DNA of 64,000 nt from Bacteroidota bacterium. GTDB lineage: Bacteria; Eisenbacteria; RBG-16-71-46; SZUA-252. The notes under the pieces were generated by a model, which was given only the letters and a program-made list of their open reading frames with translations, did not search any database and was not told the DNA's origin. The stretch spans positions 34,356 to 98,355 of the forward strand of contig JBLMWD010000118.1 of NCBI GenBank assembly GCA_050257045.1, written 5' to 3'. Below are positions 21,840 through 53,581 of this stretch, piece after piece (the first letter of the stretch is position 1; each line of letters opens with the position of its first letter). Both the position numbers and the translations under genes were made by a program.

Positions 21840-21840
21840 C

Positions 21841-22815: not shown

Positions 22816-22992
22816 TGTGCCCCCAGTACGGCCGAGGCGGATCCTCCGTGACTGGGGGAGGTTACGGAAAACGGCCTGGGGCCGCCGGGCGCGGCAGAAA
22901 GGGGGTTCCCGTGACCGGGGGCGGGCATCTAAGCTGTACACGCTTTAACTAGTGTTCTCCGTCGTCCACCACCCGAGTAGCGCAGGTCACCC

Positions 22993-23502: not shown

Positions 23503-23509
23503 TCGAGGC

Positions 23510-26206: not shown

Positions 26207-26255
26207 TGCGCGCGGGCGCGACTCCCCCCACGACCCCAACCCGGAGGAGACCGTG

Positions 26256-26726
26256 ATGTCACGATCCCGACGTTTCGTTCCCGTCGTCCTGCTCGCCGCC
26301 TGTGCCCTGCTCCCCACGGCTTCGCCACGGGTCGCTCATGCCGAGACCACCGGCGGGATCCGCATGGGATTCAGCTCGACCCCGGATCAGTTCGTGTTCG
26401 GCGGCCAGCTCAATTTGAATCCGGTCGGCAAGCAGGTCTACATCGTCCCGAGCGGCGAGCTCGGCGTCGGCGATCACGTCACGACCCTCTGCTTCAACGG
26501 GGACGTGCAGTACCGGTTCGAGACGCGCAGCGAGGTGCGTCCCTATGCCGGCGGCGGCGTCTCGCTGTTCGACGTGACCGACAGCGGCGACACGAACTTC
26601 GGAGTCAGCGCGCTCGGCGGGATCTTCTTCGGGCGCATGAACGGCAAGCCGATGTTCGCGGAGGCGAAGCTCGGGCTCTCGGACGAGGTTCCGGACTGGA
26701 AGTTCATCTTCGGGATCAACTTCTAG
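26256..26726 (+). CDS. Small outer-membrane beta-barrel protein (OmpW/OmpA-barrel-like)
   Basis: GGAGGA RBS 8 nt upstream of ATG. Signal peptide MSRSRRFVPVVLLAACALLPTASPRVAHA. Alternating beta-strands. Terminal ...FIFGINF with C-terminal Phe. Confidence 0.65.
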   Translation: MSRSRRFVPVVLLAACALLPTASPRVAHAETTGGIRMGFSSTPDQFVFGGQLNLNPVGKQVYIVPSGELGVGDHVTTLCFNGDVQYRFETRSEVRPYAGGGVSLFDVTDSGDTNFGVSALGGIFFGRMNGKPMFAEAKLGLSDEVPDWKFIFGINF

Positions 26727-26756: not shown

Positions 26757-29399
26757 TCAGTGCCCGCGCGGAAGCCAGTTCACGTAGACGGTCGTGACCG
26801 GCGCGTCGACCAGGTCGACATCGCGGCGAACCAGGAACCGCTGCCCGTCTGCCGACACCGCGTAATAGTGACCCGCAGGGTCGATGTTGTCGATCGACTG
26901 GCGGAAGAGCGCGTGCGGCGTCCCGAGCGTCATCGTGGGAGTCGCGCTCACGTCCACCGCCATGAGATCGCCGCTCGGTGCGAGGTAATAGAGCTCCCGC
27001 TCATCCCGGCGCCAGTGCGCGTCGCGGCCGCCCTGGCTCGAGACCTGGAGCTTCCCTCCGGAGCCGTCGATCGACTGGAGATAGATCTCGGAGCGCCCCG
27101 ATTCGGTGGAGGAGTAGGCGATCCACCGGTCGTCCGGGGAGATCGAGGGCTCCACGTCCCCCGCCGGGCCCGCGATGAGCGGATAGGGTTTCCGGGAGCC
27201 GTCGAGCGGGAAGACCCAGATGTCCCAGAGGGTCTTGGGCTCGCGGACGACTCCGACGAGGAATCGCCCGTCGTGGGACCAGTCGGTCGCGATGGCGCGC
27301 TCCGGGAGGTTGAAGAGAAGCGAGTCCGTTCCGGCACCCGACGAGCGCTTCAGGTAGATCCCCGAGGGTGGAATCCGGTCCGACGTGTAGACGATCCGCG
27401 ACCCGTCGGTGGACCAGAGCGGAGCGTAGTCGGACGCGGGATCGAAGGTCAGGCGCGTGCTCACGTTTCGGACGGCATCGACGATCCAGATGTCCACGTT
27501 GTCGCCGCCGAAGGTCGCCCCCACCCGCCGGCCGTCGGGCGCGAGGCTCAGGTTGAAGTACTCGCCGGGGTTGCCCGTGGCGCTGACCTCCTTTCCGGTG
27601 CGATCGACCCAGACCAGGTGCATCCGCCGTCCGGCGGCGCCGCCTCGGAAGACGAGCGTCGAGGGGGACGACGAGAAGTCGGCGTTGGAGCCGACGCCGC
27701 CGCCCACGGCGACGTCGTCCACGACGGGAAACGGGTCGCCCGTCAGGCGCAGGGAGCGCGCATCGAACGGCTGCGCGAGGAGCGACCGGTCGCGCGCGAA
27801 GAGGATGTAGCCGGGCTCCACGTATTCGATCCGTGAGTACGTCCCTCGGGCGAGCACCACGACCTTGGACGACCGGATGTCGCCCACCTTCAGAATGGTC
27901 TGATCGGCCCGGTTCGTGAGACCGAGGAACAGGAAGTGCCGCCCGTCGGGAAGAAAGTGAGGCCAGGCACTTCCGGTCTCACCATGGGCGTGGTCGAGCG
28001 TGGTCACGGGGCGCGGGTCGCCGCCTCCGGCGCTCACCATGCGAATGGAATCGGTCGGGCTCCCGTCGAAGAGGATGGCGTCGTCGCGGCTCCAGGTGCC
28101 GTCTCCCGCACTCTGCGATTCGCAGATCGTCTGGGGCGGGCCGCCCTGGACCGCGATCTTCTTGAGCTTCCCTTCCTGCATGAATCCGAGATAGCGGCTG
28201 TCCGGGGACCAGAACGGCCGCCGGGCACCCTCCGTCCCGGGGAGCGGCTGCGCATCCAGCGACCCGAGCGGGCGGAGCCAGATGTTCGAGCGACCCGTCG
28301 AATCGGAGGCGTTGTAGGCGACGTACCGGCCGTCGGGCGAGACCTTGGGGGTGTCGCCAAGGAGGATGCCCCGCGGCGTGGGCGCGAAGAACCGCAGCGG
28401 GACCGGCTCCGGCGGCCGGTTCGCCATCGTGAACCCTGCCACGCCGAGCATCACCGCCACGGCGGCGCCCGCGATCGTCCAGGCGAGCCGCTCCCGGCTC
28501 TTCCGGCGCGCCGAGACGGTCGCCGGGATGCCGGCGCGCGATCCCGCCTCAGCGACCCACTTGAGATCGAGGTGCACATCGCGCGCGGTCTGATAGCGGT
28601 CCTCGGGACTCTTTTCGAGGCACCGCATCACGACGCGCTCGAGCGCGGGCGGGATGACGGAGCGGATCGAGGAGATCGGCTGCGGCGTCTCGCGCAGGAT
28701 CGCGGCGATGAGACTCGCCTGGCTCTTTCCTTCGAACGGGCGGCGGCCGGACGCCATCTCGTAGAGCATCGCCCCGAACGAGAAGATGTCGCTCCGCGAG
28801 TCGGCTTCGGCGCCCTCGAGCTGCTCGGGCGACATGTACTGGAACGTGCCGACGATCGTCCCCTCGGCGGTGAGGGGGTGGCTCATGGTCGGCGAGGAGA
28901 GGTCGCGTGGCGCGGCGCCGAGCCCGGTCACGCGCGCGAGGCCGAAGTCGAGGAGCTTCGCGCCGCCTTTCGTGAGGACGACGTTCCCCGGCTTCAGGTC
29001 GCGGTGGACGAGCCCCTGGCGGTGCGCGCGATCGAGGGCGTCGGCGATCTGGACGCCGATCTGGAGCAGCTCGGGGAGCGGCAGGGCGCCGCGCGCGAGC
29101 CGTTCGGCCAGCGACTCCCCCTCGAGGTACTCCATGACGAGGTAGTCCATCCCGTCCTGATGGCCGACGTCGTAGAGCGTGCAGATGTTCGGATGGTTGA
29201 GGCTCGAGACGATGCGCGCCTCGCGGTCGAAGCGCTGCCGCGTCTCGGGGCTCACGGCGAGATGCCCCTGCAGCACCTTGATCGCCACGGTGCGGTCGAG
29301 CCTCGTGTCGCGCGCGCGGTAGACCTCGCCCATGCCGCCGCTGCCGGCGAGCGCCTGGATCTCGTAGGCGCCGAGTCGGGTCCCTGGCTGGAGGGTCAT
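26757..29399 (-). CDS. Hanks-type Ser/Thr protein kinase with single TM segment and C-terminal TolB-like (PD40/WD40-like) beta-propeller
   Basis: Kinase motifs GSGGMGEVYRA, VAIK, HRDLKPGNVVL, DFGLAR, SPEQ. TM helix LAWTIAGAAVAVMLGVAGF. Repeated PD40-like units (SPDGRYVAY..., SPDSRYLGF..., STDGSRIVYTSD..., SPDDRWIAYSS...). Confidence 0.85.
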   Translation of the reverse strand: MTLQPGTRLGAYEIQALAGSGGMGEVYRARDTRLDRTVAIKVLQGHLAVSPETRQRFDREARIVSSLNHPNICTLYDVGHQDGMDYLVMEYLEGESLAERLARGALPLPELLQIGVQIADALDRAHRQGLVHRDLKPGNVVLTKGGAKLLDFGLARVTGLGAAPRDLSSPTMSHPLTAEGTIVGTFQYMSPEQLEGAEADSRSDIFSFGAMLYEMASGRRPFEGKSQASLIAAILRETPQPISSIRSVIPPALERVVMRCLEKSPEDRYQTARDVHLDLKWVAEAGSRAGIPATVSARRKSRERLAWTIAGAAVAVMLGVAGFTMANRPPEPVPLRFFAPTPRGILLGDTPKVSPDGRYVAYNASDSTGRSNIWLRPLGSLDAQPLPGTEGARRPFWSPDSRYLGFMQEGKLKKIAVQGGPPQTICESQSAGDGTWSRDDAILFDGSPTDSIRMVSAGGGDPRPVTTLDHAHGETGSAWPHFLPDGRHFLFLGLTNRADQTILKVGDIRSSKVVVLARGTYSRIEYVEPGYILFARDRSLLAQPFDARSLRLTGDPFPVVDDVAVGGGVGSNADFSSSPSTLVFRGGAAGRRMHLVWVDRTGKEVSATGNPGEYFNLSLAPDGRRVGATFGGDNVDIWIVDAVRNVSTRLTFDPASDYAPLWSTDGSRIVYTSDRIPPSGIYLKRSSGAGTDSLLFNLPERAIATDWSHDGRFLVGVVREPKTLWDIWVFPLDGSRKPYPLIAGPAGDVEPSISPDDRWIAYSSTESGRSEIYLQSIDGSGGKLQVSSQGGRDAHWRRDERELYYLAPSGDLMAVDVSATPTMTLGTPHALFRQSIDNIDPAGHYYAVSADGQRFLVRRDVDLVDAPVTTVYVNWLPRGH

Positions 29400-29446
29400 A
29401 AGAGTTAAGACGGTATCACAAAAACGTCGCAAGGGCGCTATATCGC

Positions 29447-29475
29447 TTGATTTAGGGGCGTGTTCGCGGTATAAT
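29447..29475 (+). promoter_or_regulatory. Sigma70-type promoter TTGATT-N17-TATAAT upstream of the giant S8 protease gene
   Basis: cTTGATTtaggggcgtgttcgcggTATAATcc has an exact -10 consensus, a 4/6 -35, and 17-nt spacer. It lies in the 249-bp divergent intergenic region, about 170 nt upstream of ATG 29648. Confidence 0.45.
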
Positions 29476-29647
29476 CCTCCCTTCACGCAAATCCCATCCC
29501 CCGTGGGTTCCGTTCGGCACGCTGACCGAGGAGGTGACCCCGCCCCAGGACCCCACCGTTCACCCCACGAGTGCATCCCGACGCATCGCGAACCATGCCC
29601 TAGCCGCGCTCGAGGCCGCGGCTCGAATCGTTCCATGGAGGTCAGGC

Positions 29648-37126
<7,479 letters not shown>

Positions 37127-37210
37127 CCTCGCGTCGCGACTCGAACAACGAGCCGCCGGGTCCCGCGAGGGGCCCGGCGGTTTCGTTTGCGGTCCGGACC
37201 GTCCGGCGAG

Positions 37211-39664: not shown

Positions 39665-39761
39665 GGAGGACTCCCTATTCCGCGGGCCGCGGATCGCTTG
39701 GGAGAATACGCGCCCGGGTCCCATCGTCCTAGTGTCCCGGGGTATACCGACCGCTGCGGCG

Positions 39762-41759
39762 TCAGCCCCCGAGCTTCTGAAGGGTGGCCGCGTCCACGCG
39801 CATGCCGCGCCGCTCCGCCTCCCGGATGTCGGCGAGCCCCCCTGCCTTGTCCCCCGCGCCCGTGCGGGCAGCGCCTCGGTAGAGGTAGTAGGCGGCGACG
39901 CGCGGCTCGCCCGGGGGCGCGGCCCGGATCGCCTCGTCGAACGCCGGGATCGCCTCCGGGTACCGGCGAAGCTTCGTGAGCGCGTAGCCGATCGTGCCGA
40001 GCTGGAGGTAGTTGTCGGGGCGATCGGGGGCGAGCTCCAGGGCGCGCCGGCTGTCGGGGATCCCCTTCTCGTATTCCCCCAGGTTCACGTAGGCGAGCGC
40101 CCGGTTCGCGTAGGCGTCGCGATGCGCGGGATTCAGCTCGATCGCGCGCGAGCAGTCGGCCACGGCTCCGGCGTTGTCGCCCATGTTCAGCTTCAGCGCG
40201 CCGCGGTTGTTCCACGAATCCGGCATTCCCGGCTGCAGGGCGAGCGCGCGGTCGAACGCCACGAGCGACGAATCGTTCCGCCCCATCGCCGCGAGCACGT
40301 TCGCCTTGTTGAGCCAGATCTTGGCGACGTCGGGATTCAACGCGATCGCCTGGTCGAAGTCGGCGAGCGCCTCGTCATAGCGCTTCTCGTCGTTGTAGTA
40401 GAAGTAGCCGCGGTCGTTGTAGGCGTCGGCGATCCGGCCCGGATACTTCGCGATCGTGTCGTTCCAGAGCGTCCCCGAGTTCTGCCAGACGTCGCAGCGC
40501 TTCCAGGTCGCGAACGCCGAGACCGGGACGAGGAGCCCGAGCACGACGGCCAGCGCCACGCGCACCGGCGCGCCGCGCGGAAGGCGCTCGCGCGGCTCGT
40601 CGAGCCACCAGGCCAGGGCGACGAAGAGGCCGATGTAGGCGACGTAGGTGTAGCGGTCGGCCATGACGGCGCCGCCGATCGAGAAGAACTGGAGGACGAG
40701 GACGATGTTGATGAAGAAGAACGCGAGCCCGAAGAGGACGACGCGGTTGTTCCGGAAGAGCCAGATGAGCGCGGGGATCACGACGACCGCCACGGCCAGC
40801 GTGACGTAGTACTCGGGGCCGATCGCGCCGCGCGCGAGGCTCGGGTAGGGATAGATCGCCGAGAGACGCATCGGCAGGAAGAGCTTCACGACGTACATGA
40901 CCACGCCGTACGCCGCGAAGAGAGCCTTCTGGAAGGGCCCCCAGTGCTCGGTGATCGCGCCGCTCGCCCGCTGGATCTGCAGCGTCACGACCCCGTCGAT
41001 CAGGGCGACGAGCAGGAAGGGCGCCTTCTCGAGCCAGACCGCGCGCGTGAAGCGGCGCTTCCGGAACCAGTCGATCGCGATCAGCGTGAGCGGGAAGACG
41101 ACCGCGGCGGGCTTCGCCGCGACCGAGAGCACGAAGAGGGCGAGCGCGCCCCAGAGCCAGGCGGGCTGCTTCCGGTCGACGTGGCGCAGGTAGGCGATCA
41201 GCCCCGCGAGGTAGAAGAAGGCGTAGAGGACGTCCTTCCGCTCGGCCACCCAGGCCACCGACTCCACGTGCATCGGATGGATGCCGAAGAGCGTCGCCGC
41301 GACGACCGGCGTCCAGCGCCGCCCGCGCGCGAGCCCGCGCACGAAGAAGAAGACGAGCGCCGTGTTCGCGACGTGGAGGAGGAGGCTCGTCCAGTGGTAG
41401 GCGCGGGGATCGAGCCCCGCGAGCCGGTAGTTCAGGACGAACGACCAGATCGTGAGCGGATGCCAGTTCCCCGCCACCGGCGTCGTGAGCACCGCGTGGG
41501 CGTCGGGATGCGCGACGAGCGGGTTCTCGGTGACGTAGAAGTTGTCGTCCCAGTTCGTGAACGCGTTGTCGAGCGCCGGGATGTAGACGAGGAACGTGAG
41601 CGCGAGGATCGCAGCGAGCCAGACCGGCCAGGGGAGGCCGAGGAGCGGCGTTGCGTGCGCGCCCGCAGCCCTCCCGCTCGCCGCATGCGGCGGTCCGGGT
41701 CGCGGAGATCCTCCCTCTCGGAGCGCGCCTCCGCCCCGGTGCCTCCTGCTCGGGCTCAC
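39762..41759 (-). CDS. GT-C fold (DUF1736/PMT-like) membrane glycosyltransferase with C-terminal TPR repeats (TMTC-like protein O-mannosyltransferase candidate)
   Basis: GTG start at 41759 overlapping the GT2 stop (GTGA), giving MSPSRRHRGG..., parallel to the paralog N-terminus [21 protein letters not shown] loop motif, about 11 TM helices, C-terminal TPRs (DAYNDRGYFYYNDEKRYDEALADFDQAIALNPDVAKIWLNKANVL...). Confidence 0.8.
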   Translation of the reverse strand: MSPSRRHRGGGALREGGSPRPGPPHAASGRAAGAHATPLLGLPWPVWLAAILALTFLVYIPALDNAFTNWDDNFYVTENPLVAHPDAHAVLTTPVAGNWHPLTIWSFVLNYRLAGLDPRAYHWTSLLLHVANTALVFFFVRGLARGRRWTPVVAATLFGIHPMHVESVAWVAERKDVLYAFFYLAGLIAYLRHVDRKQPAWLWGALALFVLSVAAKPAAVVFPLTLIAIDWFRKRRFTRAVWLEKAPFLLVALIDGVVTLQIQRASGAITEHWGPFQKALFAAYGVVMYVVKLFLPMRLSAIYPYPSLARGAIGPEYYVTLAVAVVVIPALIWLFRNNRVVLFGLAFFFINIVLVLQFFSIGGAVMADRYTYVAYIGLFVALAWWLDEPRERLPRGAPVRVALAVVLGLLVPVSAFATWKRCDVWQNSGTLWNDTIAKYPGRIADAYNDRGYFYYNDEKRYDEALADFDQAIALNPDVAKIWLNKANVLAAMGRNDSSLVAFDRALALQPGMPDSWNNRGALKLNMGDNAGAVADCSRAIELNPAHRDAYANRALAYVNLGEYEKGIPDSRRALELAPDRPDNYLQLGTIGYALTKLRRYPEAIPAFDEAIRAAPPGEPRVAAYYLYRGAARTGAGDKAGGLADIREAERRGMRVDAATLQKLGG

Positions 41760-42544
41760 GCGCGAGCCGCCTCGGTCGCTGCGGCGGCACGCCGCCGCAG
41801 GTTCATCGGGAAGTGCGCCGACCGCGCGATCCCCCACCGCGCGAGCGCGAACTCGAGCGCGGTCCCCACGCAGCCGAATCCGTAGCGGATGCTCCGCGCG
41901 AAGTTGATCGAGGAGGCGTCGGCGGCGTAGCGCGTGGGGCAGGAGACCTCGGCCACCAGGTACCCGGCCCAGATCACCTGCGCGAGCATCTGGTTGTCGA
42001 AGACGAAGTCGTCCGAGTTCTGGTCGAGCGGCAGCGACTCGAGCACCCGGCGCGAGAAGGCGCGGTATCCGCTGTGGTACTCGGAGAGCTTCGCGCCGAG
42101 GAAGAAGTTCCCGATCAGGGTGAGGACGCGGTTCGCGGCGTAGCGCCAGAGCGGCATCCCGCCCTTCAGCGCATATCCGCCCAGGATGCGTGAGGCAACG
42201 ACGCAGTCGTAGAGCCCCGAACGGATCAGCGAGACCATGGCCGGGATGAGCTTCGGCGTGTACTGGTAGTCGGGGTGGACCATGATGATGATGTCGCCCC
42301 CTGCCTCCAGCGCCGCACGATAGCAGGTCTTCTGATTCCCTCCGTACCCCAGGTTCCGCTCGTGGACCACGACCTTCGCGCCGGGGAGCTCGCGCGCCAC
42401 CTCCACCGTGTGGTCGCGGCTCTGGTCGTCCACGACGATCACGAGGTCGACCACGCCCTGGGCCATCACCTCGTCGTAGGTCTTCCGGAGGGTGGCCTCG
42501 GCGTTGTAAGCGGGCATCACGACGACGACTTTGGAGGGGGGCAC
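41756..42544 (-). CDS. GT2 family glycosyltransferase, polyprenyl-phosphate sugar synthase (Dpm1/Ppm1-like)
   Basis: KVVVVMPAYNAEATL...VIVVDDQSRDHT...ERNLGYGGNQKTCYRAALEAGGDIIIMVHPDYQY gives the DxD and catalytic motifs of dolichol-phosphate mannose synthase-like GT2. Confidence 0.85.
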   Translation of the reverse strand: MPPSKVVVVMPAYNAEATLRKTYDEVMAQGVVDLVIVVDDQSRDHTVEVARELPGAKVVVHERNLGYGGNQKTCYRAALEAGGDIIIMVHPDYQYTPKLIPAMVSLIRSGLYDCVVASRILGGYALKGGMPLWRYAANRVLTLIGNFFLGAKLSEYHSGYRAFSRRVLESLPLDQNSDDFVFDNQMLAQVIWAGYLVAEVSCPTRYAADASSINFARSIRYGFGCVGTALEFALARWGIARSAHFPMNLRRRAAAATEAARA

Positions 42545-42724
42545 GGGCCAAGAGTAACGGGTTTGAGGCCTGGCTGCCAGCCGGGCGCGCCGGAGGCCCG
42601 CGCCCGGAAACGTGGAATTCGATGTTGCGGGTCTTTCCAAGTCAGGCGCACAATTTTCGGGCTGTTAAGGGTTTTGCCGTCCGCCCTTCCTTGCGGGGAA
42701 GGTTTCGATAGATCGAAGGTTCCA

Positions 42725-45415
42725 ATGGCCCCGAATCGCATCCGCGTTCTCGTTCCACTCGTCGCTCTCCTCCTCGTTTCCTGCAGCGAGAAGCAGGCGA
42801 CCGCGCCCAAGGTTCCCGATACCGGCGGCACGCCGCCGCCGGCCACGGACACCACGCCGCCCACGGTGACCCAGACCACGCCCGCTGATCACGCGACGGG
42901 CGTCGATCGCGGGATCGTGATCCGCGCCACGTTCTCGGAATCGATCGCGGCGAACAGCGCGACCGGTCAGACCTTCCTGGTCACCGGTGACACGCCGGTT
43001 GCCGGTACCGTCTCGGCCTCGGGCTCCACCATCCTCTTCACCCCTGCGGCTCCGCTCCAGGGGAGTCACGCGTACACGGCGACGATCACGACGGGAGTCC
43101 GGGACCCTGCGGGGAACGCCCTGGCCCAGAACTACACCTGGTCGTTCACCACGATCGGCCAGGCGCCTGTCGCGAACGCCGGACCCGACCAGACGGTCAA
43201 GTCCGGGGACAACGTGGCCCTCGACGGCAGCGGCAGCGTCGACCCCGACGGGTATCCGCTCACGTACACATGGACGCAGACCGCCGGTCCCGACGTGACC
43301 GGAGGCGCCCACACGCTGACCGGCGAGCGCCCGGGCTTCGTGGCTCCCTCCCAGACCACCACGATCACGTTCAGCCTGGTGGTCGACGACGGGCACATGC
43401 CGAGCACCCCCGACTCCGTTTCGATCTTCGTCAACTTCACGCCGCCGCCCGACACCACCCCGCCGGAGGTGCTGTCGACCGACCCGGCCGCCGACGCCAC
43501 CAATGTGGATAGCGGCACGGCGATTCGTGCCACCTTCTCGGAGTCCGTGGCGCCGGGCAGCGTCACCACGGGGACCTTCCAGCTCTCGGGCCCGGGCCCC
43601 GTCTTGGGGACGGTGACCGCGTCGGGCTCGACCGCCATCTTCACGCCTTCGTCCCCGCTCCAGGGGCAGCAGACCTACACGGCCACGCTCACGACCGGCA
43701 TCACGGACCTTGCCGGAAACGCGCTCACCCAGAACCATGTCTGGACGTTCACGACCGTGAACCAGGTGCCGATCGCGAACGCGGGCCCCGACCAGACCGT
43801 CGAGACCGGCGCGAGCGTGACCCTCGACGGGAGCCTGAGCAACGACCCCGACGGCCACGCTCTCACGTACGCGTGGACGCAGACGTCGGGGATCGACGTG
43901 ACCGGCGGATTGGGGACCTTCACGGGGGCTTCGCCGAGCTTCACCGCGCCCTCGTCCTCGACCACGATCGTCTTCAGCCTCGTCGTGAACGACGGCGTTT
44001 CCTCGAGCACGCCCGACCTCGTCCAGATCACGGTCCATCAGACGCTGACCGGCATCTTCGCGAGCCCGAACGGGAGCGACTCCAATCCCGGCACGAGCGC
44101 CGCGCCGCTGCGGACGGTGGCGGCCGCGATCGCCGCGGCAACGTCGAACGCCGTCGCCAGCGTCTACCTCGCCGGCGGCACGTACACGCAGGATCAGTTC
44201 GTCCTCGCCTCGGGCGTGAACCTCATCGGCGGTTACGATCCGACGTTCCAGACGCGCGACCCCGCCACATACGTGACCACGCTCTCGGGCGGAACCACCG
44301 CGCTCGTTGGGAATGGCGTGAGCAACGTCCGCGTGGATGGCGTCACGATCCGGAGCGCCGACGCCACGGGTGCGGGCCAGTCCTCCTACGCCGCGTTCCT
44401 CCAGGGCGCGAGCGGAGTGACGTTCCACGGCTGCACGCTGGTGGCCGGAAACGGCGGCGCCGGGACCGCGGGCTCGCTGGGCTCGGTCGGGGCTGCGGGC
44501 GCCATCGGCGCCGATGGCGGAGCGAGCGGCTGCCCCGACGTGAACGCGGCGGGAGCGGGCGGAGACGGAGGGAGCGGGCAGCCGAATGGAGGCGGCGCGG
44601 GCGGGAGCGGCGGAAACCTCACCTCGTCCTTCGTCGCGCAGGTCGGGCAACAGGGCTCGGGCCCGTCCGGCGGAGCGGGCGGCATTGCCGGAACGCCAAG
44701 CACGAAGGGAAAGCGCAACGGCGGACCGGGGTCGGCCGGCGGCGCCGGATCTCCGGGGACCGATGGAGCCGCGGGGGCCCCGGTCGGCTCCCTGAGCGCC
44801 TCGGGCTACGCGCCTGCAAACGGCGGGGACGGCGGCAGTGACGGAACCGCGGGCAGCGGCGGTGGGGGCGGAGGCGGATCGAGCGGCACTTCCTCCGGCG
44901 GCGCTGGAAATGGCGGTGGCGGCGGGGGAGGCGGCGGCGCGCCCGGTGCCGCGGGCACGGCGGGCACGGGCGGCGGCGGATCGTTCGCGATCGCGCTCGT
45001 CGGCTCGTCCAATGTCGTCGTCGACTCCTGCACGCTGGACACCGGCTCCGGCGGTGCGGGAGGCTCCGGTGGCGCCGGAGGAAACGGCGGATCGGGCGGT
45101 GGCGGCGGAACCGGCGGTCAGGCGTGCAAGCAGGACGTCGGCGTCGGCGGAACCGGCGGGGGCGGAGGCATGGGCGGCCGCGGCGGCGACGGCGGCGGCG
45201 GCGGCGGAGGCCCCACGATCGGGATCCTCTACGACGACACGAGCACCTTGAGCGAGAGCGGGAACAGCTACGCGCTCGGCACTCCGGGCTCCGGCGGAAC
45301 GAGCGCGGGCCACCCCGGATCGGCGGGCGCGGCGCAGAACGTGCTCCGGCTCACGGCGCCTGCGGCGGCCCGGACCGGCACGACGGCCGCGCGGGTCAGC
45401 GCGCTCCGTAAGTAG
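42725..45415 (+). CDS. Surface lipoprotein: 2x(SbsA-type Ig-like + PKD-like) domains, beta-helix domain and about 250-aa Gly-rich low-complexity C-terminal region
   Basis: Lipobox LLLVSCS. Duplicated TPPTVTQTTPADHATGVDRGIVIRATFSESI... / TPPEVLSTDPAADATNVDSGTAIRATFSESV..., each followed by ANAGPDQTV...LDGSGSxDPDG. Tail GGAGGSGGAGGNGGSGGGGGTGG. Confidence 0.75.
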   Translation: MAPNRIRVLVPLVALLLVSCSEKQATAPKVPDTGGTPPPATDTTPPTVTQTTPADHATGVDRGIVIRATFSESIAANSATGQTFLVTGDTPVAGTVSASGSTILFTPAAPLQGSHAYTATITTGVRDPAGNALAQNYTWSFTTIGQAPVANAGPDQTVKSGDNVALDGSGSVDPDGYPLTYTWTQTAGPDVTGGAHTLTGERPGFVAPSQTTTITFSLVVDDGHMPSTPDSVSIFVNFTPPPDTTPPEVLSTDPAADATNVDSGTAIRATFSESVAPGSVTTGTFQLSGPGPVLGTVTASGSTAIFTPSSPLQGQQTYTATLTTGITDLAGNALTQNHVWTFTTVNQVPIANAGPDQTVETGASVTLDGSLSNDPDGHALTYAWTQTSGIDVTGGLGTFTGASPSFTAPSSSTTIVFSLVVNDGVSSSTPDLVQITVHQTLTGIFASPNGSDSNPGTSAAPLRTVAAAIAAATSNAVASVYLAGGTYTQDQFVLASGVNLIGGYDPTFQTRDPATYVTTLSGGTTALVGNGVSNVRVDGVTIRSADATGAGQSSYAAFLQGASGVTFHGCTLVAGNGGAGTAGSLGSVGAAGAIGADGGASGCPDVNAAGAGGDGGSGQPNGGGAGGSGGNLTSSFVAQVGQQGSGPSGGAGGIAGTPSTKGKRNGGPGSAGGAGSPGTDGAAGAPVGSLSASGYAPANGGDGGSDGTAGSGGGGGGGSSGTSSGGAGNGGGGGGGGGAPGAAGTAGTGGGGSFAIALVGSSNVVVDSCTLDTGSGGAGGSGGAGGNGGSGGGGGTGGQACKQDVGVGGTGGGGGMGGRGGDGGGGGGGPTIGILYDDTSTLSESGNSYALGTPGSGGTSAGHPGSAGAAQNVLRLTAPAAARTGTTAARVSALRK

Positions 45416-46241
45416 CGGACGACGAGGAAAGGGTCGCGCCGAGGGTCAGGTCTCCGGGCATGCCCCCCGGGAACCGGCGCTCGATCGCGGCCTGGATGAT
45501 CCCGCTCCGATTCCCCGGGTCGGGATGCGTGCTCAGGAACTCCGGCTGGCGGCTCGTACCGGTCGCCTCGCTCAGGATCCGCATCACCTGGATGAGCGCG
45601 CGCGGATCGTAGCCCGCCTCGGACATGAAGCGCACGCCGAGCGTGTCGGCCTGGATCTCGTCGTGACGGCCGTACCGCAGCGAGACCATCTGCGCGACGA
45701 ACGCCGCCATGGCCGCCGATCGCTCACCGCTGTTCTGATCGTTCGCGCCCGCCACGCCGGCCGCCCCGATCAGCCCCTGCGCCAGCCGGCTCCGCGCGAT
45801 CTGCTCCGCCGTGTGGCGGCCGACCACGTGGCCCACCTCGTGCCCCAGCACGCCCGCGAGCTCCGCCTCGTTCTCGAGCCGGTCGAGGAGGCCGCGCGTG
45901 ATGAAGACCGGCCCCCCCGGAAGCGCGAACGCGTTCACGGTCTGGGGATCGGAGAGCGCATAGAAGTGGAACTGATACGGCGTGCCATGGGCCTCGCTCC
46001 CCTGAACCACGTGCTCCCCGACCTTTTGCACGAGGCGCTGCACCTCGTCGCTCGGGTCGAGCCCGCCCATCTGCTCGGCCATCTGCGGCGCCGACTGGAG
46101 CCCGAGCGCCACCTCCTGGTCGGTGTCCATGGTGATGTGCTGCGTCGCTCCGGTGATCGGGTTCTGCTGGCGAACCGAGTAGTAGCTGATCAGCGAGATC
46201 GCTGCGATCAGCAGGCCGAGCAGGAGATGTCCTCGTCGCAT
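45396..46241 (-). CDS. M48 family zinc metallopeptidase
   Basis: N-terminal TM MRRGHLLLGLLIAAISLISYY. HEVGHVVGRH (HExxH). Conserved downstream E and GxRF motif typical of M48. Confidence 0.85.
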   Translation of the reverse strand: MRRGHLLLGLLIAAISLISYYSVRQQNPITGATQHITMDTDQEVALGLQSAPQMAEQMGGLDPSDEVQRLVQKVGEHVVQGSEAHGTPYQFHFYALSDPQTVNAFALPGGPVFITRGLLDRLENEAELAGVLGHEVGHVVGRHTAEQIARSRLAQGLIGAAGVAGANDQNSGERSAAMAAFVAQMVSLRYGRHDEIQADTLGVRFMSEAGYDPRALIQVMRILSEATGTSRQPEFLSTHPDPGNRSGIIQAAIERRFPGGMPGDLTLGATLSSSSATYGAR

Positions 46242-46389
46242 GGCGCGTTCCTCCCTCGTTCGGACCGCGGCATGCGGCCGAAAGAGCCTTGGGCATTGCA
46301 AGGAGAGCGCCAGAGCGTCGTGGATGGTTAATACCGGGTCGCGGCGGGCAGGGAGATAGCGGCTACGGGTATCGCAGGGACGGAAAGGG

Positions 46390-47394
46390 CTATGGACTTG
46401 CGGCCGCGCGTCGGGACCGGGTCGTGGAGCGGACGGGAACGAGCGCGACGGCGCTGCTCCGCCTCCAGGCCTCGGCAAGGTCCGTCGCGATGAGCGAGGC
46501 CACGCCGGCGTCGCCCCAGTACCCGGTGTGGGAGAGCGGGTTCCATCGCGTCAGCCAGGACCCCACGTCGACGGCGCGGTCTTCCGCGACCGCCTCCGCG
46601 TAGCGCGCGTTGACCGGCTTCAAGGGGTAGCCGATCACGTCGTCGGGGTCGTAGAGGTTCACCCAGCGCGCCCGGAGGTCGGGATGGTGGCGCGCGAGGC
46701 GTCTCGCCGGGAGAGAGACCGGCACGCCGAAGCCCGGATAGCGCAGGCTCCAGAGCGCGATCGGACTTCCCATCGTGTAGACGAGAGAGACGGTCTCCCC
46801 GCGCTCGAGCGGCGTCGATCCGATCCGCGCCCGGACCTCGGGGGCCATGTAGCTCTTCCGCGGCTTCAGGAGATCGTAGAGATAGTTGCTCGCGATCACC
46901 GTGCCGAGGCTGTGCCCGATGACGCAGAGAGGGGCGCGCGCCCCGGCCCGCTCGGCGAGGCGGGCGAACGTGGACGCGACCTCCGCATGGATCGCGTCGT
47001 ACGCCGAGCGGTCGGACTCGGTTGGCTGGTAGGCGATCGCGTCGGCGGCGAAGTCGAGCATGAAGTGACGAAGCGCTTCCCAGCGCAGAGCGTTCCCGCC
47101 GGCGGCCGCCGGGCTGCCGTTTGGGGCCGGGCCGCGCGCGACTCCCTCGAAGATCCCGCTCCGATGACTCATGACCTCCGCTGCCTCGAATCGTGACCAG
47201 AGCCGGTCCTCCGAGGGCTGGAGCGCGCCGCTCCAGTTCACCTCTTCGAAGACGACCTGGGTGGCGGGAACGGAGCACTCGTCTCGGATCGTACGGACGA
47301 AGCGCGCGGCGATCGCGTCCGCGAGCGGACGCGAGTAACCCGGCTCGGTGCGGCCGATGCCGTGGAGGAAGGCAACTGCGATCGGGTGGCTCAT
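46390..47394 (-). CDS. Alpha/beta-hydrolase fold lipase/esterase-like protein
   Basis: AVAFLHGIGRTEPGY (oxyanion region). GHSLGTVIASNYL nucleophile elbow (GxSxG). 335 aa. Confidence 0.65.
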   Translation of the reverse strand: MSHPIAVAFLHGIGRTEPGYSRPLADAIAARFVRTIRDECSVPATQVVFEEVNWSGALQPSEDRLWSRFEAAEVMSHRSGIFEGVARGPAPNGSPAAAGGNALRWEALRHFMLDFAADAIAYQPTESDRSAYDAIHAEVASTFARLAERAGARAPLCVIGHSLGTVIASNYLYDLLKPRKSYMAPEVRARIGSTPLERGETVSLVYTMGSPIALWSLRYPGFGVPVSLPARRLARHHPDLRARWVNLYDPDDVIGYPLKPVNARYAEAVAEDRAVDVGSWLTRWNPLSHTGYWGDAGVASLIATDLAEAWRRSSAVALVPVRSTTRSRRAAASP

Positions 47395-47540
47395 GGTATC
47401 GGGACAAGTATCGGCGGGCGCTCCGAAGACTTGAGCGCTCGAGTCCGGGTGTCCGGGCCCCGAACCCGTCTCGCGGAGAACCGCCAGCTCGATTTCTGGG
47501 TCCCGGGACGAGTTCAGCAACCAGTTGTCATGACGAAGAG

Positions 47541-48419
47541 TCAGAACTCGCCGTCAGAACTCGTTCCAGAGCGAGTCGGCGTGGCGCCGCTCGATCTCTG
47601 TCCGTAGACCTGCGTGAATTCGGCGCCGTAGAAGAAGATCAGCGCCGAGTAGTAGACCCACACGAGAAGCACCACGAGCGAGCCCGCGACGCCGAACGCT
47701 GATCCCACGTTGGCCTTCCCGAGATAGAAGCCGATGGCCGCCTCCCCCGCCACGAAGAGAACAGCGGTGACGAGCCCGCCGACCCAGGCCTCCCGCCAGC
47801 GCACGATCGCCGAGGGGATGAAGCGGAACATGAGCCCGAAGAGCGCGGCGAGCACGGCGGTGGAGACGAAGAAGTTGACCACGCCCCAGAGCGCCGTGCC
47901 GCCGGGGAGGCTTCGCGCGAGATAATCGCCGAGCGCAGCGAGGAGCGCGTTCACGGCGAGTGAAACCACGAGCAGGAACGCAGCGCACATGAGGACCACG
48001 ATCGAGAAGACGTTGTCCTTGAGCCAGCCCCTCACGCCCCCGCCTTTCTTCGCGCGCACGTTCCAGATCGTGTCGAGCGTGTCCTTGAGGTGGCCGAACA
48101 CTCCCGAGGCCCCGAGCAGGAGACTCCCCACGCCGACGAGGGTCGCGGTCGTGCTGCGCCCCTCCTGGTTCATGTGGACCAGGAGGTCGCGGATCGCGGC
48201 GGTTCCCTCGGCGCCGAAGAGCTGCTGGAGGGTGGAGAGAAGTCGTCCCTGCACCGACTCGCGCCCGAAGATCAGCCCGGCGATCCCGATCACGAGCAGG
48301 AGCAGCGGAGGCACCGAGAAGACGGTGTAGTAGGCGAGCGCCGCTCCGAGGCGATCGGCGCGGTCGCGTTTCCAGTCCTGGAAGGCGGCCCAGAAGAGCC
48401 GAGCGATGCGTCCCAACAA
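47541..48419 (-). CDS. YihY/virulence factor BrkB family membrane protein
   Basis: LAYYTVFSVPPLLLLVIGIAGL..., 6 TM helices, C-terminal FYGAEFTQV motif characteristic of YihY/BrkB. Confidence 0.85.
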   Translation of the reverse strand: MLGRIARLFWAAFQDWKRDRADRLGAALAYYTVFSVPPLLLLVIGIAGLIFGRESVQGRLLSTLQQLFGAEGTAAIRDLLVHMNQEGRSTTATLVGVGSLLLGASGVFGHLKDTLDTIWNVRAKKGGGVRGWLKDNVFSIVVLMCAAFLLVVSLAVNALLAALGDYLARSLPGGTALWGVVNFFVSTAVLAALFGLMFRFIPSAIVRWREAWVGGLVTAVLFVAGEAAIGFYLGKANVGSAFGVAGSLVVLLVWVYYSALIFFYGAEFTQVYGQRSSGATPTRSGTSSDGEF

Positions 48420-48420
48420 C

Positions 48421-48466
48421 GAAGCGCTCCTTCCCCCACCGATCGGATGAGGGTAAGGAGCGCTTG
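48421..48466 (-). terminator. Inverted repeat (11-bp stem AAGCGCTCCTT / AAGGAGCGCTT, 24-nt loop) between Ig-protein gene and yihY-like gene; candidate terminator/attenuator that sequesters the yihY RBS
   Basis: Perfect 11-bp complementarity seen directly in the sequence. The distal arm contains AGGAG located 6-10 nt upstream of the yihY-like start codon. Confidence 0.3.
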
Positions 48467-48516
48467 GACGACGCGAAAGCGGAATCGAGCCCTGGGCAAC
48501 CTCTCTTCTACTTCTA

Positions 48517-51207
48517 CTACTTCAATATTGTGAACCTCCCCTGGGACGACGCCTCGGACGCGTCGATGCGGTAGAAGTAGACTCCGGAGGCCAGCGGCGA
48601 CCCCGTCTCCGAGCGTCCGTCGATCCGGACCTCGTGGCGGCCCGCGGCCGTCTCGGCGTCATACGCCGTCCGGACCAGGCGCCCCGCCAGGTCAAAGACC
48701 TGGACACGCACCCGTCCTGCCTTCGACGTCTGGAACGACAGCACCGCCTCGGGATTCAGCGGATTCGGCGCGATCGAGGCGGCGAGCTGCCCCGACCCGT
48801 TCACGACCTCGATCGAGAGGTCGCCGGTGAAGGACCCGCCGGTCATCAGATTTCCGCGAACCGTGACCGTCACCGTGTTCGTCCCCGCCGGGAAGCCGAG
48901 GCTGGCGAAATCGGATACGGCGAAGCAGACCTCGAGATCCGGCACACCGTTGCCGTCGGTGTCCGAAATCACCGCTCCCTTCGAGGCGAGGGCGTTCACG
49001 AAGGCGCCGTTGTACCCGAGCTGAACCGTGGAGAGGTCGACGTTTTCGAGCAGGAAGTCTCCGGCGATCGGCTCGACCTGGGCGCACCAGGTCCGTCCGG
49101 ACTGCGCGCTCGCGATCCGAATTCTCCGGAACCGGTTCTTCGCGACGAAGACCCGTGCCTGGACCTGATTCTGGATCGTGACCGGCGCCGTGTCGGAGCC
49201 GGTGAGGAATCCGTCGGAGACGGTGAGCGTGGCCGTGTACGACCCCGCCACCGCATACGTGTGCTGCGGCGTCGGACCGACACCGGTGGCGCCGTCTCCG
49301 AACGCCCAGGAGTAGGCGAGCTGGTCGCCGTTCGGGTCGGACGACCCCGTCCCGTCGAACGCGATCTGCGCGTGCACCAGCCCCGAATAAGGACCGCCCG
49401 CCTCGGCGACCGGCGGCAGGTTGGTGCCGCTCTGGCTGACGGTGATCTGGGTGGTGGCCGAGCCGCTCAACGCATTCGTGGCCGTGAACACGACGTTGAA
49501 GACGCCGGTCTGGCCCGGTGTCGGAGTCCAGTCGAACGTGCCCGAGGTGTGCGACGCGTTCGTGCTGAACGTCGATCCGACCGGGGCGCCATACGTGCCG
49601 AACGAGACGATCGCGTCGCCGTCCGGATCGATGGCGGTCACGGTGAATTCGATCAGGGTTCCCACCGCGCCCGACACCGAGAGGGGCGCCGTGACGACGG
49701 GAGCGCGATCGAAGCAGGCGACGTAGACATTGGTGGTTCTGGCGCCGGTCATGCTATTCGCCGCTGTGAACGTGAAGTTCCAGCTCCCCTCGGAGCTGAA
49801 GGAAGGTGTCCAGCTGAAGGTGCCCGACGTGTTCGTGGCGTTCACGGTGAAGGAGAAGTTCGTCGACGGCACCGGGTACACGGTCAGACTGGAAATGGCG
49901 TCCCCGTCGGGATCGGAGGCGGAGACCGTGAAGGTCAGGTTGCTGAGCGGACAGACCGTCAGGAAACCCGGCGCGGTGACGACCGGGGCGCGGTCGACGT
50001 TGGAGATCGAGAACGTCGTGGTCGCCGATCCAGTGAGCGTCGCCGTCGCGGTGAACGTCACGGCGTACGTGCCGGCCTGGTCGTATCCGGGCGTCCAGGC
50101 GAACGTCCCCGACGTGTTCGTCGCGTCGGTCGTGAACGCCGCGCCGGCCGGAAGGGGCGAGGCGGCGAGCTGGACGATCGGCTCGCCGTCCGGAGTCGAA
50201 GCGGTCACCACGAACGTGATAGGTGTCCCTTCCGGTCCCGAGACCGTGGCCGGGGCGGCGACGACCGGGGTCGCGGAGCAGGCGCCGACGTCGATCGCGG
50301 TGCTGGCTGAGCCGGAGAGCGCGTTCGCGGCCGTGAACGTCACGTTGTAGGAGCCTTCCTGCCCCGAAGCGGGGGTCCAGGCGAAAGTCCCCGAGGTCAG
50401 GGCAGCGTTCGTCACGAACGTGGCGCCCGAGGGGATCGGAGCCGCCGTGAGCGACGTGATCGGGTCGCCGTCCGGATCGGACGCGATGACGTCGAACGAG
50501 AGCGCGCTGCCTGCGCAGGTCGAGACGCTCGCGGGCGCCGACACGACCGGCGCGTGCGGCACGTCACGGACCGTGATGTACGTCGTCCCCGAGCCGATCT
50601 GCAGGTTCATGGCCACGAACGTCACCCGGTAGAGCCCCGCCTGACTGAACGTCGGGAGCCAGGAGAACGTTCCGAACTGCTTCGCCGCGTCCACCGTGAA
50701 GATGGCGTTCGCCGGGAGCGCGGACGTGTTCCAGGCGGTGATCGCCTCGCCGTCCGGATCGGAGGCGCTCACGGTGAACGTAAGGAGCGCCTGCTCGTCG
50801 GTCGAGGCGGTCGGCGGCGCGTTCACGACGGGCACGGAATTCCCCGCCGCGTAGATCTGAAGGAAAACCGTGGCGGAGCCGGAGAGCGAATTCGAGGCGG
50901 TGAAGGTGACGTTCGTCTGTCCCGCCGCCGACGGAGTCCACTGGAACGTGCCCGACGTGTGCGTGGCGTCCGACGTGAACGTCGCTCCCGAGGGAAGCGG
51001 CGATCCGGTGAGCGAGGCGATGGCGTCGCCGTCGGGATCCGAGGCCAGCAGCACGAAGCTCACGGGCACCCCGGCGTTACCGTAGACGCCGGTGGGCGCG
51101 AGCACGACGGGGGCCCGGTCCTGGGCGTGCGCGACGAGCGGGAGCAGGAACAGGGCGGCGATCGCCGCGGCGGAAGCGAGCAGGCAGGCTCGCGGGGAGC
51201 GGATCAT
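48517..51207 (-). CDS. Surface protein with six tandem cadherin-like/putative-Ig (He_PIG-type) repeats, a PKD domain and T9SS type-A C-terminal sorting domain
   Basis: Signal peptide MIRSPRACLLASAAAIAALFLLPLVAHA. 6x units of about 95 aa (APVVxAP...F.V.ASDPDGDxIxSL...P.GATF...TSGTFxWTP...G.Y.VTFTA.N.LSGSA). PKD: AEAGGPYSG...SSDPNGDQLAYSWAFGDG. C-terminal domain: IAPNPLNPEAVLSFQTSKAGRVRVQVFDLAGRLVRTAY...ASGVYFYRIDASEASSQGRFTILK. Confidence 0.8.
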   Translation of the reverse strand: MIRSPRACLLASAAAIAALFLLPLVAHAQDRAPVVLAPTGVYGNAGVPVSFVLLASDPDGDAIASLTGSPLPSGATFTSDATHTSGTFQWTPSAAGQTNVTFTASNSLSGSATVFLQIYAAGNSVPVVNAPPTASTDEQALLTFTVSASDPDGEAITAWNTSALPANAIFTVDAAKQFGTFSWLPTFSQAGLYRVTFVAMNLQIGSGTTYITVRDVPHAPVVSAPASVSTCAGSALSFDVIASDPDGDPITSLTAAPIPSGATFVTNAALTSGTFAWTPASGQEGSYNVTFTAANALSGSASTAIDVGACSATPVVAAPATVSGPEGTPITFVVTASTPDGEPIVQLAASPLPAGAAFTTDATNTSGTFAWTPGYDQAGTYAVTFTATATLTGSATTTFSISNVDRAPVVTAPGFLTVCPLSNLTFTVSASDPDGDAISSLTVYPVPSTNFSFTVNATNTSGTFSWTPSFSSEGSWNFTFTAANSMTGARTTNVYVACFDRAPVVTAPLSVSGAVGTLIEFTVTAIDPDGDAIVSFGTYGAPVGSTFSTNASHTSGTFDWTPTPGQTGVFNVVFTATNALSGSATTQITVSQSGTNLPPVAEAGGPYSGLVHAQIAFDGTGSSDPNGDQLAYSWAFGDGATGVGPTPQHTYAVAGSYTATLTVSDGFLTGSDTAPVTIQNQVQARVFVAKNRFRRIRIASAQSGRTWCAQVEPIAGDFLLENVDLSTVQLGYNGAFVNALASKGAVISDTDGNGVPDLEVCFAVSDFASLGFPAGTNTVTVTVRGNLMTGGSFTGDLSIEVVNGSGQLAASIAPNPLNPEAVLSFQTSKAGRVRVQVFDLAGRLVRTAYDAETAAGRHEVRIDGRSETGSPLASGVYFYRIDASEASSQGRFTILK

Positions 51208-51360
51208 GGGGGGGGCCATTCCTTTCCGGACTCCGTGTCCTCGGTCGAGGTGGAGCTGTGGAGGGCCCATGCGCGACGGGGGGAGAACGGCTCGAGGTCG
51301 AGTCGGCGCGGTCACGGATGTTCCCTCTTGCCTGGGCGGCGAAATGCGCCCGATCGCAGG

Positions 51361-53565: not shown

Positions 53566-53581
53566 GGTACGATCGCGGGGC

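Follow-up and report, generated by a model that had tools for sequence, protein, structure and literature searches.

A surface-protein neighborhood of conserved and singly varying genes, with three candidate type IX sorting domains, in a probable Candidatus Eisenbacteria contig

We analyzed a 64-kb stretch of contig JBLMWD010000118.1 (hereafter the window), in which a first-pass annotation had marked out 22 kb as a single accessory island of cell-surface genes. This region encodes a giant S8 (subtilisin-type) protease, an FG-GAP repeat protein, two adjacent glycosyltransferases of the GT2 and GT-C types, a lipoprotein, an M48 peptidase, a hydrolase, a YihY family protein and a cadherin-like repeat protein (Table 1). 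We consider it likely that the region is an ordinary neighborhood of the Eisenbacteria type, in which single surface genes vary around a conserved backbone, in which three proteins with a common C-terminal domain (CTD) would be type IX secretion system (T9SS)-type cargo, and in which the GT2 and GT-C genes form a pair.

The shared C-terminal domain

The C-termini of the S8, FG-GAP and cadherin-like proteins can be aligned over ~95 amino acids at 33-44% identity. They carry the motifs from which the first-pass annotation had proposed one Por-type domain common to the three proteins, and independent models with significant matches bear the proposal out. All three pass the cut-off (23 bits) of TIGR04183, the T9SS type A sorting domain, with 26.0 (S8), 32.1 (FG-GAP) and 30.8 bits (cadherin-like), in matches that end 2-4 residues before the stop codon. 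They also pass the cut-off (27 bits) of PF13860 (FlgD_ig) with 37, 32.6 and 36.1 bits, respectively, and only the cadherin-like protein passes PF18962 (Por_Secre_tail; 28.8 bits against a cut-off of 27; FG-GAP 17.6). A profile built from Bacteroidota PorU proteins alone and run on the six-frame translation of the window matched, via its CTD portion, exactly these three open reading frames (ORFs), with E-values of 3.8e-8, 6.3e-6 and 3e-4. At the other end of the proteins, Sec-type signal peptides were read from the sequence by eye (S8, MSPHLRSFTAFVSLLCSLLFATGAMG/A; FG-GAP, MPPIFQAKSLPWHMAFLLLMSTPAAADA; cadherin-like, ...ACLLASAAAIAALFLLPLVAHA/Q).

We then combined 21 of these domains (three from the window and 18 from related loci) in a CTD profile and searched it against PDB sequences, where it matched PorU (6za2, 6e-8), PorZ (5m11, 4e-4) and the CTD of RgpB (5hfs, 1e-3). 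The domain is always at the extreme C-terminus and carries PNPxNP, D-x-x-G-R, G-x-Y-F and a terminal K/R; across the 21 sequences the G in D-x-x-G-R is invariant, and G-x-Y-F and a terminal hydrophobic-x-hydrophobic-K/R motif are conserved. A passage of PMC11285876 describes for T9SS CTDs a conserved Gly within the motif of the beta3-beta4 loop, and a C-terminal motif that is conserved as well. Among related high-GC loci totalling ~1 Mb, the domain terminates ~35 otherwise unrelated proteins, among them an M12B protease with PA14, a PA-domain protein, and LVIVD, GEVED, GH9 and malectin proteins. The window proteins thus resemble type A cargo of Bacteroidota, such as RgpB of P. gingivalis (TIGR04183/PF18962), in combining a Sec signal with an Ig-like C-terminal domain of ~80-90 amino acids, in passing TIGR04183, in their profile matches to the CTDs of PorU, PorZ and RgpB, and in that the domain sits on proteases, glycoside hydrolases and adhesin-like repeat proteins. 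They differ in that their host belongs to an uncultured lineage outside the Bacteroidota for which the searched literature reports no T9SS machinery, and in that, by Pfam scores, their CTD subfamily lies nearer to PF13860 than to PF18962.

This last difference is the starting point of another explanation, according to which the CTDs would be Ig domains of the FlgD kind that serve structure or adhesion and have no connection with a secretion system. PF13860 is the best Pfam match for the CTD of all three proteins, the core pattern V-x-V-x-D-x-x-G-R-x-V ... G-x-Y is shared with the flagellar hook-capping protein FlgD, and no T9SS gene could be shown for the lineage. The match to FlgD in PDB, however, spans the core only (profile positions 29-85), whereas those to PorU and PorZ begin at positions 10-11 and therefore include the PNPxNP strand; the window CTD has motifs on both sides of the FlgD-aligned core. 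Many genuine PorU sortases of Bacteroidota (P0001-P0120) have a precomputed PF13860 hit as well, apparently on their own CTD, so that a FlgD_ig match is no argument against a sorting role. The CTD profile also matches a PorU in locus L158, at residues 1037-1113 (L-numbers denote loci from other sequences; the relatives among them are metagenome contigs with the taxonomy of their source labels). Judging from these matches, T9SS CTDs and the Ig domain of FlgD form a single sequence superfamily. The window contains neither flagellar genes nor a FlgD N-terminal domain, the curated cut-off of TIGR04183 is passed three times, and Acidobacteriota orthologs of the S8 protease have the domain replaced. 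A sorting tag is favored over a structural Ig domain by the constant position of these last ~90 residues as the final module of unrelated secreted proteins, by the conserved Gly and C-terminal motifs, and by the presence of the domain in 103 of 120 S8 homologs. We therefore regard the FlgD-like explanation as quite improbable; at the level of sequence family, the shared CTD is supported as a sorting domain of the T9SS type A class.

If it works as in known cargo, the three tagged proteins would be exported to the periplasm via their Sec signal peptides, and the ~90-residue Ig-like domain would be recognized as a type A sorting signal and lead the protein across the outer membrane. The cargo might then be released or attached to the cell surface, and act there as a protease or as adhesin-like repeat proteins.

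The host is probably a bacterium of the Candidatus Eisenbacteria (Eiseniibacteriota) type, judging from its closest relatives at the protein level: the closest M48 matches among one-genome-per-species contigs are metagenome-assembled genomes (MAGs) of Candidatus Eisenbacteria (64-75% identity), and S8 and GT-C homologs are source-labeled Candidatus Eisenbacteria or Eiseniibacteriota. To our knowledge this is an uncultured soil phylum; in NCBI taxonomy Eiseniibacteriota stands with the candidate phyla, and it is usually placed in or near the FCB (Fibrobacteres-Chlorobi-Bacteroidetes) superphylum. Two differently labeled sequences, L001 (DATJEJ010000269.1, 'Candidatus Omnitrophota') and P0126 ('Hyphomicrobiales'), are 69-77% identical to Eisenbacteria sequences, to which L001 is also syntenic, and are probably mis-binned or mislabeled MAG contigs.

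The first-pass annotation held that the T9SS machinery must be encoded elsewhere. Pfam and NCBIfam scans of every plausible ORF indeed detected no T9SS machinery gene within the 64-kb window, which places the machinery elsewhere if it exists. One candidate, the FGE-sulfatase domain protein at 55814-57316, was considered as GldK/PorK and rejected, since it is fused to DinB_2 and lies beside EgtD, which identifies it as EgtB. A search for PorU homologs returned Bacteroidota only. A PorU (L158) and a PorZ (L153) came up by chance in low-GC loci that are not from Eisenbacteria, the PorU locus being of Bacteroidota type. The introduction of PMC11285876 states that T9SSs may exist in several FCB phyla other than Bacteroidota too; PMC7323717 contains nothing on other phyla.

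Several points weigh against our interpretation. The top PDB matches of the CTD profile are FlgD structures (7eh9 at 2e-9, 7bhq and 3osv), and the CTD scores slightly higher on FlgD_ig than on the Pfam model Por_Secre_tail. PorU and PorZ profiles run on the ~1 Mb of related high-GC loci matched CTDs only, and the Pfam-annotated contexts of relatives, including three GT-C paralog loci, contain no T9SS Pfam family, both samples being too small to be informative. In the searched literature we found no paper that links Eisenbacteria or Krumholzibacteria with T9SS. As for the neighborhood itself, the relatives compared below are metagenome contigs named from source labels, and the absences in relatives may stand for genes lost there as well as for genes gained in the window.

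Conserved backbone and singly varying genes

The largest gene of the region is also broadly conserved. The S8 protease consists of a signal peptide, a fervidolysin-like prodomain, the catalytic domain, fn3, ~3.8 modules and the CTD. Self-BLAST on segments of the protein, which was used for all internal repeats, delimits a module of ~433 amino acids (NIDO plus HYDIN/ASH Ig) whose ~3.8 copies (nucleotides ~31265-36208) are 44-46% identical to one another. The motifs of the Asp-His-Ser triad are intact: DTG (IDTGVD), HGTH (NGHGTHTSG) and GTSMA (SGTSMATPHVAG). Like known multidomain subtilases with a fervidolysin-type prodomain and a choice-of-anchor D domain, the protein combines a Fervidolysin_NPro-like domain and the triad motifs with a match to NF012200 (choice_anch_D, 151 bits). 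What its family adds to them is a fixed four-fold array of the ~433-residue module and a length of ~2,490 amino acids, maintained across more than 100 clusters. No described function for this architecture turned up in our searches, which were not aimed at it.

More than 120 full-length clusters of homologs were found at 43-95% identity, most of them covering 99-100% of the query. Their length is mostly ~2,450-2,540 amino acids, and 107 of 120 (P0121-P0240) have four module matches. The family spans Candidatus Eisenbacteria/Eiseniibacteriota, and its more distant homologs are labeled Krumholzibacteria. The 17 of 120 full-length homologs that have no CTD comprise a few shorter or partial entries and others, including every one named Acidobacteriota/Polarisedimenticolia; the Acidobacteriota (Polarisedimenticolia) homologs end in other domains. 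The C-terminal anchor of this family differs by lineage, as the NCBIfam name of the choice-of-anchor domain implies. To judge from these comparisons, the S8 protease is a broadly conserved orthologous family, the opposite of an accessory gene.

Comparison of gene order among relatives shows that the genes of the region come and go singly. In L161, whose S8 protease is 95% identical, the order is kinase-S8-FG-GAP-GT-C, and the contig ends before GT2. L162 (S8 79% identical) has kinase-S8-GT-C-GT2 followed by an alpha-2-macroglobulin gene, and no FG-GAP gene. L163 (S8 74%) reads S8-GT-C-GT-C-GT2-M48-hydrolase-ligase-ABC, without the kinase, FG-GAP, lipoprotein, YihY and cadherin-like genes. The Eisenbacteria MAG contig L002 has ligase-YihY-hydrolase-M48-lipoprotein and is collinear with the window from 58.1 to 45.2 kb except for the cadherin-like gene. 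L081 and L082 skip the kinase, S8 and FG-GAP genes, so that GT2-GT-C is joined directly to a homolog of the window gene at 26022-26726. S8 orthologs at 64%, 62% and 47% identity sit in unrelated gene contexts. The kinase gene, which is divergent from the S8 gene and lies just outside the flagged region, is part of the variable block: its orthologs stand beside S8 in L161 (85% identical) and L162 (78%), and L163 and L081 have none. The DNA ligase gene, a housekeeping gene flanking the region on the other side, serves as a marker of the conserved backbone (orthologs 85% identical in L002 and 76% in L163).

The remaining genes differ in how they are distributed. The FG-GAP protein, with its signal peptide and CTD, has an ortholog only in L161 (88% identical), and none at the corresponding position in L162, L163 and L081. 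The lipoprotein is made of two ~200-residue Big_5 plus PKD modules and a Gly-rich C-terminal half, and does not carry the CTD; its C-terminal end is conserved beside M48 in L001 and L002, and it is absent in L162, L163 and L081. The M48 peptidase has an intact HEXXH motif; its orthologs in Eisenbacteria MAGs are 64-77% identical, and a look-up of its exact sequence gave no record. The hydrolase, with its GHSLG motif, lacks a signal peptide, reaches no Pfam family above threshold, and has no relative in PDB. It is a direct neighbor of M48 in L001-L007, which are Eisenbacteria loci, and in L163, but not in L008, a contig that extends over the upstream position without a hydrolase match; L081 has the hydrolase and no M48. 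YihY occurs in L001 and L002 but not in L163 or L081. The cadherin-like protein consists of a signal peptide, six ~95-residue Big_9/He_PIG repeats (the repeat number given by the first-pass annotation), PKD and the CTD. A search of 1.84 billion cluster representatives gave no full-length ortholog of it: the best hits cover the C-terminal 660-780 residues at 43-50% identity and belong to a family that exceeds 150,000 repeat proteins. Its gene is absent in L163 and L081, and in L002 a gap of 54 bp separates the stop of the ligase from the start of YihY, a place that this 2.7-kb gene occupies in the window.

The region is thus a locally conserved backbone, consisting of S8, GT-C/TPR (tetratricopeptide repeat), GT2, M48, hydrolase and DNA ligase genes, in which single genes came and went; FG-GAP, lipoprotein, YihY, kinase and, most clearly, the cadherin-like gene behave as accessory genes. 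The idea of the first-pass annotation, an accessory cell-surface island, taken here to mean that the 22 kb are one discrete block whose genes arrive or disappear together, possibly through horizontal transfer, finds support in the density of surface and secreted functions, with three CTD proteins in 22 kb, and in the fact that several genes are missing from the syntenic position in relatives. Presence and absence of some genes between close relatives is indeed a property shared with genomic islands. However, the synteny comparison that had been suggested as a check, run on L002, L081, L161, L162 and L163, shows no block behavior: S8, GT-C and GT2 occur together in L162 and L163 (S8 and GT-C in L161, whose contig ends before GT2), M48, hydrolase and ligase occur together in L002 and L163, and the FG-GAP, lipoprotein, YihY and cadherin-like genes are missing independently of one another.

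The proposed check for a shift in composition or codon usage likewise gave a native picture. GC content is 0.665-0.74 over the whole window, and the tetranucleotide correlation dips solely within the repetitive S8 gene. Relative synonymous codon usage (RSCU) distances are 0.05-0.12 overall, within the range of housekeeping genes; those of S8 (0.061), cadherin-like (0.071) and FG-GAP (0.121) overlap those of the ligase (0.115) and M48 (0.119). The window contains no tRNA, an Rfam scan of it gave no matches, and no ORF in it has an integrase, transposase or recombinase Pfam family. There are no flanking or boundary repeats, all DNA-level repeats being intragenic (S8, cadherin-like and lipoprotein modules, FG-GAP blades), and no plasmid or phage similarity was found for the region. 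With its largest gene a widely conserved ortholog besides, the region differs from genomic islands in all these respects, and a single accessory island is very improbable.

The glycosyltransferase pair

The GT2 stop (TGA) and the GT-C start (GTG) overlap in the sequence GTGA. Among NCBIfam models, the GT2 enzyme is nearest to AglJ, dolichyl-phosphate hexose transferase and PpgS. It reaches the equivalog cut-off of none of them and is therefore assigned to a class only; its orthologs in L081, L162 and L163 are 89-92% identical. Of the GT-C protein Pfam recognizes the TPR half alone (TPR_1, 110 bits, five stretches, residues ~440-620), and neither PF13231 (PMT_2) nor a TMTC model matches it at E<=0.01. 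The membrane half was identified by its predicted fold. An AlphaFold model of residues 40-440 (pLDDT 85.5, pTM 0.89) was matched by Foldseek, with probability 1.00, to STT3, PglB, Pmt4, ArnT, AftD and Emb (TMq 0.46-0.57); the probability is also 1.00 for DPY19 and ALG6. The full-length model shows the helical repeats of the TPR part. Residues D71-D72 (...FTNWDDNFYV...), which follow the first transmembrane segment (TM1) in the first extracytoplasmic loop, are invariant in 40 homologs, and an acidic DD/DE motif is a signature of GT-C enzymes. PF13231 is carried by 15 of 120 GT-C homologs (55-65% identity), and three PF13231-bearing homologs are named 'protein O-mannosyl-transferase' by JGI.

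These results support the glycosylation pair of the first-pass annotation as real and translationally coupled, given the GTGA overlap, the GT-C fold match and PMT_2 in homologs. The label 'TMTC-like' that it gave to the membrane protein stands in part. A GT-C fold with a C-terminal TPR is found by the model and Foldseek; a match to the TMTC family is not, and since Pfam does not recognize the membrane domain the label rests on fold evidence. Like eukaryotic TMTC1-4, the window protein has its TPR C-terminal to the membrane part and an invariant DD after TM1. In contrast to PMT_2 and TMTC proteins it has no such Pfam match, and its best structural matches (STT3, PglB, Pmt4) point to no one family. 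The modeled fold thus supports a GT-C enzyme with a TMTC-like architecture, and does not support membership of the TMTC family proper. The window also resembles the ArnC/ArnT, GtrB/Gtr-type and Dpm1/PMT pairs in that a GT2 of the Dpm1/AglJ/PpgS type is coupled to an enzyme of GT-C fold, and differs from them in the massive expansion of the GT-C family within the Eisenbacteria phylum (5,893 hits for GT-C/TPR at E<1e-5). In such a pair, the GT2 would load a sugar on polyprenyl phosphate at the cytoplasmic face of the membrane, and the coupled GT-C/TPR enzyme would pass it to a periplasmic acceptor, which the TPR domain suggests to be a protein.

Further GT-C paralogs were seen in passing. A weak one is encoded in the window at 3700-5385, and others are in tandem or clustered, with three within 10 kb in L081 (10040-19325) and two adjacent in L163 (11565-15356). 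In a recurrent layout (L119, L124, L125, L134, L135 and L145) a GT-C paralog is convergent with an FG-GAP protein that carries the CTD.

The clustering of the pair with CTD proteins could be explained if the GT2 and GT-C/TPR enzymes formed a functional module that O-glycosylates the neighboring cargo (S8, FG-GAP and cadherin-like). The window, L162 and L163 have S8, GT-C and GT2 side by side, L161 has S8-FG-GAP-GT-C, and the GT-C and FG-GAP genes of the window are co-directional and 97 bp apart. Genes for CTD proteins are ~2.6 times as dense within 1.5 kb of high-GC GT-C genes (10 of 65 loci) as at greater distances; six of the ten cases, however, are one orthologous arrangement and thus not independent, which makes this proximity signal weak. 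In the literature, a passage of the review PMC11611037 ties T9SS to glycosylation in Cytophaga hutchinsonii, and according to one in PMC11285876, cargo of one species is glycosylated in the periplasm before it is secreted. Yet L081 and L082 keep GT2-GT-C without S8 or FG-GAP, and the GT-C family is highly multi-copy, with other paralogs beside histidine-kinase and housekeeping genes. The adjacency is gone in S8 orthologs at <=64% identity, for which reason a deep functional linkage of S8 and GT-C was rejected. A dedicated module of this kind is accordingly unlikely in our estimate, and we retain the reading of a conserved backbone that includes the pair. Beyond it, a bolder conjecture, which we hold to be rather doubtful, is that GT2-fed GT-C/TPR enzymes O-glycosylate adjacent T9SS-tagged Ig-, cadherin- and FG-GAP-repeat proteins as a bacterial counterpart of the eukaryotic O-mannosylation of cadherins by TMTC; or, if complete genomes of the phylum should be devoid of T9SS core genes, that the CTD marks a different, undescribed route of outer-membrane sorting.

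Gene map, surroundings and significance

Because long spurious ORFs are abundant at ~69% G+C, ORFs in the window were retained by their coding signature (third-position GC, GC3, >0.8 and GC2<GC1), and start codons were picked by ribosome-binding context. Eleven genes were called between 26.7 and 52.9 kb (Table 1), with GC3 of 0.80-0.94, which supports coding. Together with the Pfam and NCBIfam matches this establishes that the genes listed by the first-pass annotation are real and at or near the positions it gave, and all the families it named were recovered. Two of its starts are changed, the likeliest start codons being at 29648 instead of 29534 and at 51219 instead of 51315. Its description of every gene as extracytoplasmic or surface-modifying was too broad with regard to location, in view of the hydrolase without a signal peptide and of the GT2, an enzyme of the cytoplasmic face. 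Two antisense ORFs with high GC3, at 43132-44805 (-) and 49391-50350 (+), were rejected as genes, being shadow frames of the Gly-rich lipoprotein and of the repeat-rich cadherin-like coding sequence.

Table 1. Genes and domains called in and beside the flagged region (positions within the window)
Feature	Position	Strand	Evidence
Ser/Thr protein kinase with TM segment and TolB/PD40-type beta-propeller	26757-29408	-	Pkinase 167 bits, PD40
S8 (subtilisin-type) protease, 2,492 aa	29648-37126	+	Peptidase_S8 203.7 bits
CTD of S8 protease	36839-37123	+	TIGR04183 26.0 bits, PF13860 37 bits
FG-GAP repeat beta-propeller protein, 817 aa	37211-39664	-	FG-GAP_3 304 bits, 12 stretches; CTD 37214-37498
GT-C-fold membrane glycosyltransferase with C-terminal TPR, 665 aa	39762-41759	-	TPR hits, predicted fold
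GT2 glycosyltransferase, polyprenyl-phosphate-sugar synthase type (Dpm1/AglJ/PpgS/ArnC-like)	41756-42544	-	Glycos_transf_2 95.8 bits
Gly-rich lipoprotein, 896 aa	42725-45415	+	Big_5 x2, PKD x2, lipobox LLVSC
Membrane-anchored M48 zinc metallopeptidase (HEVGH), BepA/LoiP-like	45396-46241	-	Peptidase_M48 136 bits
Alpha/beta-hydrolase-like protein, GHSLG motif	46390-47394	-	sub-threshold Hydrolase_4
YihY/BrkB family inner-membrane protein	47541-48419	-	Virul_fac_BrkB 167.6 bits, TIGR00765 84 bits
Big_9/He_PIG/PKD 'cadherin-like' Ig-repeat surface protein, 900 aa	48517-51219	-	Pfam; CTD 48520-48804
ATP-dependent DNA ligase	51361-52884	-	DNA_ligase_A_M 157 bits

Surface and envelope proteins are also encoded to the left of the flagged region. 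At 15290-16543 (-) an ORF exceeds the cut-off of NF052320, the Cbp1 family of collagen-binding glycoprotein adhesin lipoproteins (112.9 bits against 90). The block at 20742-24739, which is conserved in L081, L162 and L163, encodes a 428-residue protein, a HYDIN/DUF1573 Ig-domain protein (21841-22944), a DPBB lytic-transglycosylase-like protein and a beta-helix protein; these are envelope proteins, none of them with the CTD. On the right, 53528-58311 contains a glycine-betaine ABC transporter of the OpuA type (the ATPase, then a fused binding-protein/permease) followed by EgtB (DinB_2 and FGE-sulfatase) and EgtD (Methyltransf_33), the genes of ergothioneine synthesis, in an arrangement that is collinear in L002 and L081. 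The segment 58697-64000 encodes kynurenine-pathway enzymes (kynureninase-like, tryptophan 2,3-dioxygenase), a 977-residue ORF with FAD_binding_3 and Oxidored_FMN, and an acyl-CoA dehydrogenase. The two domains of the 977-residue ORF are separate genes in L164, and the fusion may therefore be an artefact of ORF calling. The same gene set lies downstream of the S8 ortholog in L164, so that these regions are rearranged relative to each other.

Nothing in this would surprise a specialist, since the NCBI and JGI labels of these proteins are already generic ('S8 family serine peptidase', 'tetratricopeptide repeat protein') and T9SS has already been suggested for several FCB phyla. If our inference about the CTD holds, the tagging of cargo in the manner of T9SS would extend to Candidatus Eisenbacteria, and the giant S8 protease, conserved in its length, would be a signature of Eisenbacteria and Krumholzibacteria among surface or secreted proteins. 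The exchange of its C-terminal anchor in Acidobacteriota relatives represents a natural experiment on sorting signals. The neighborhood as a whole illustrates that a cluster of surface genes with the look of an island can be a native one that is slowly reshuffled.

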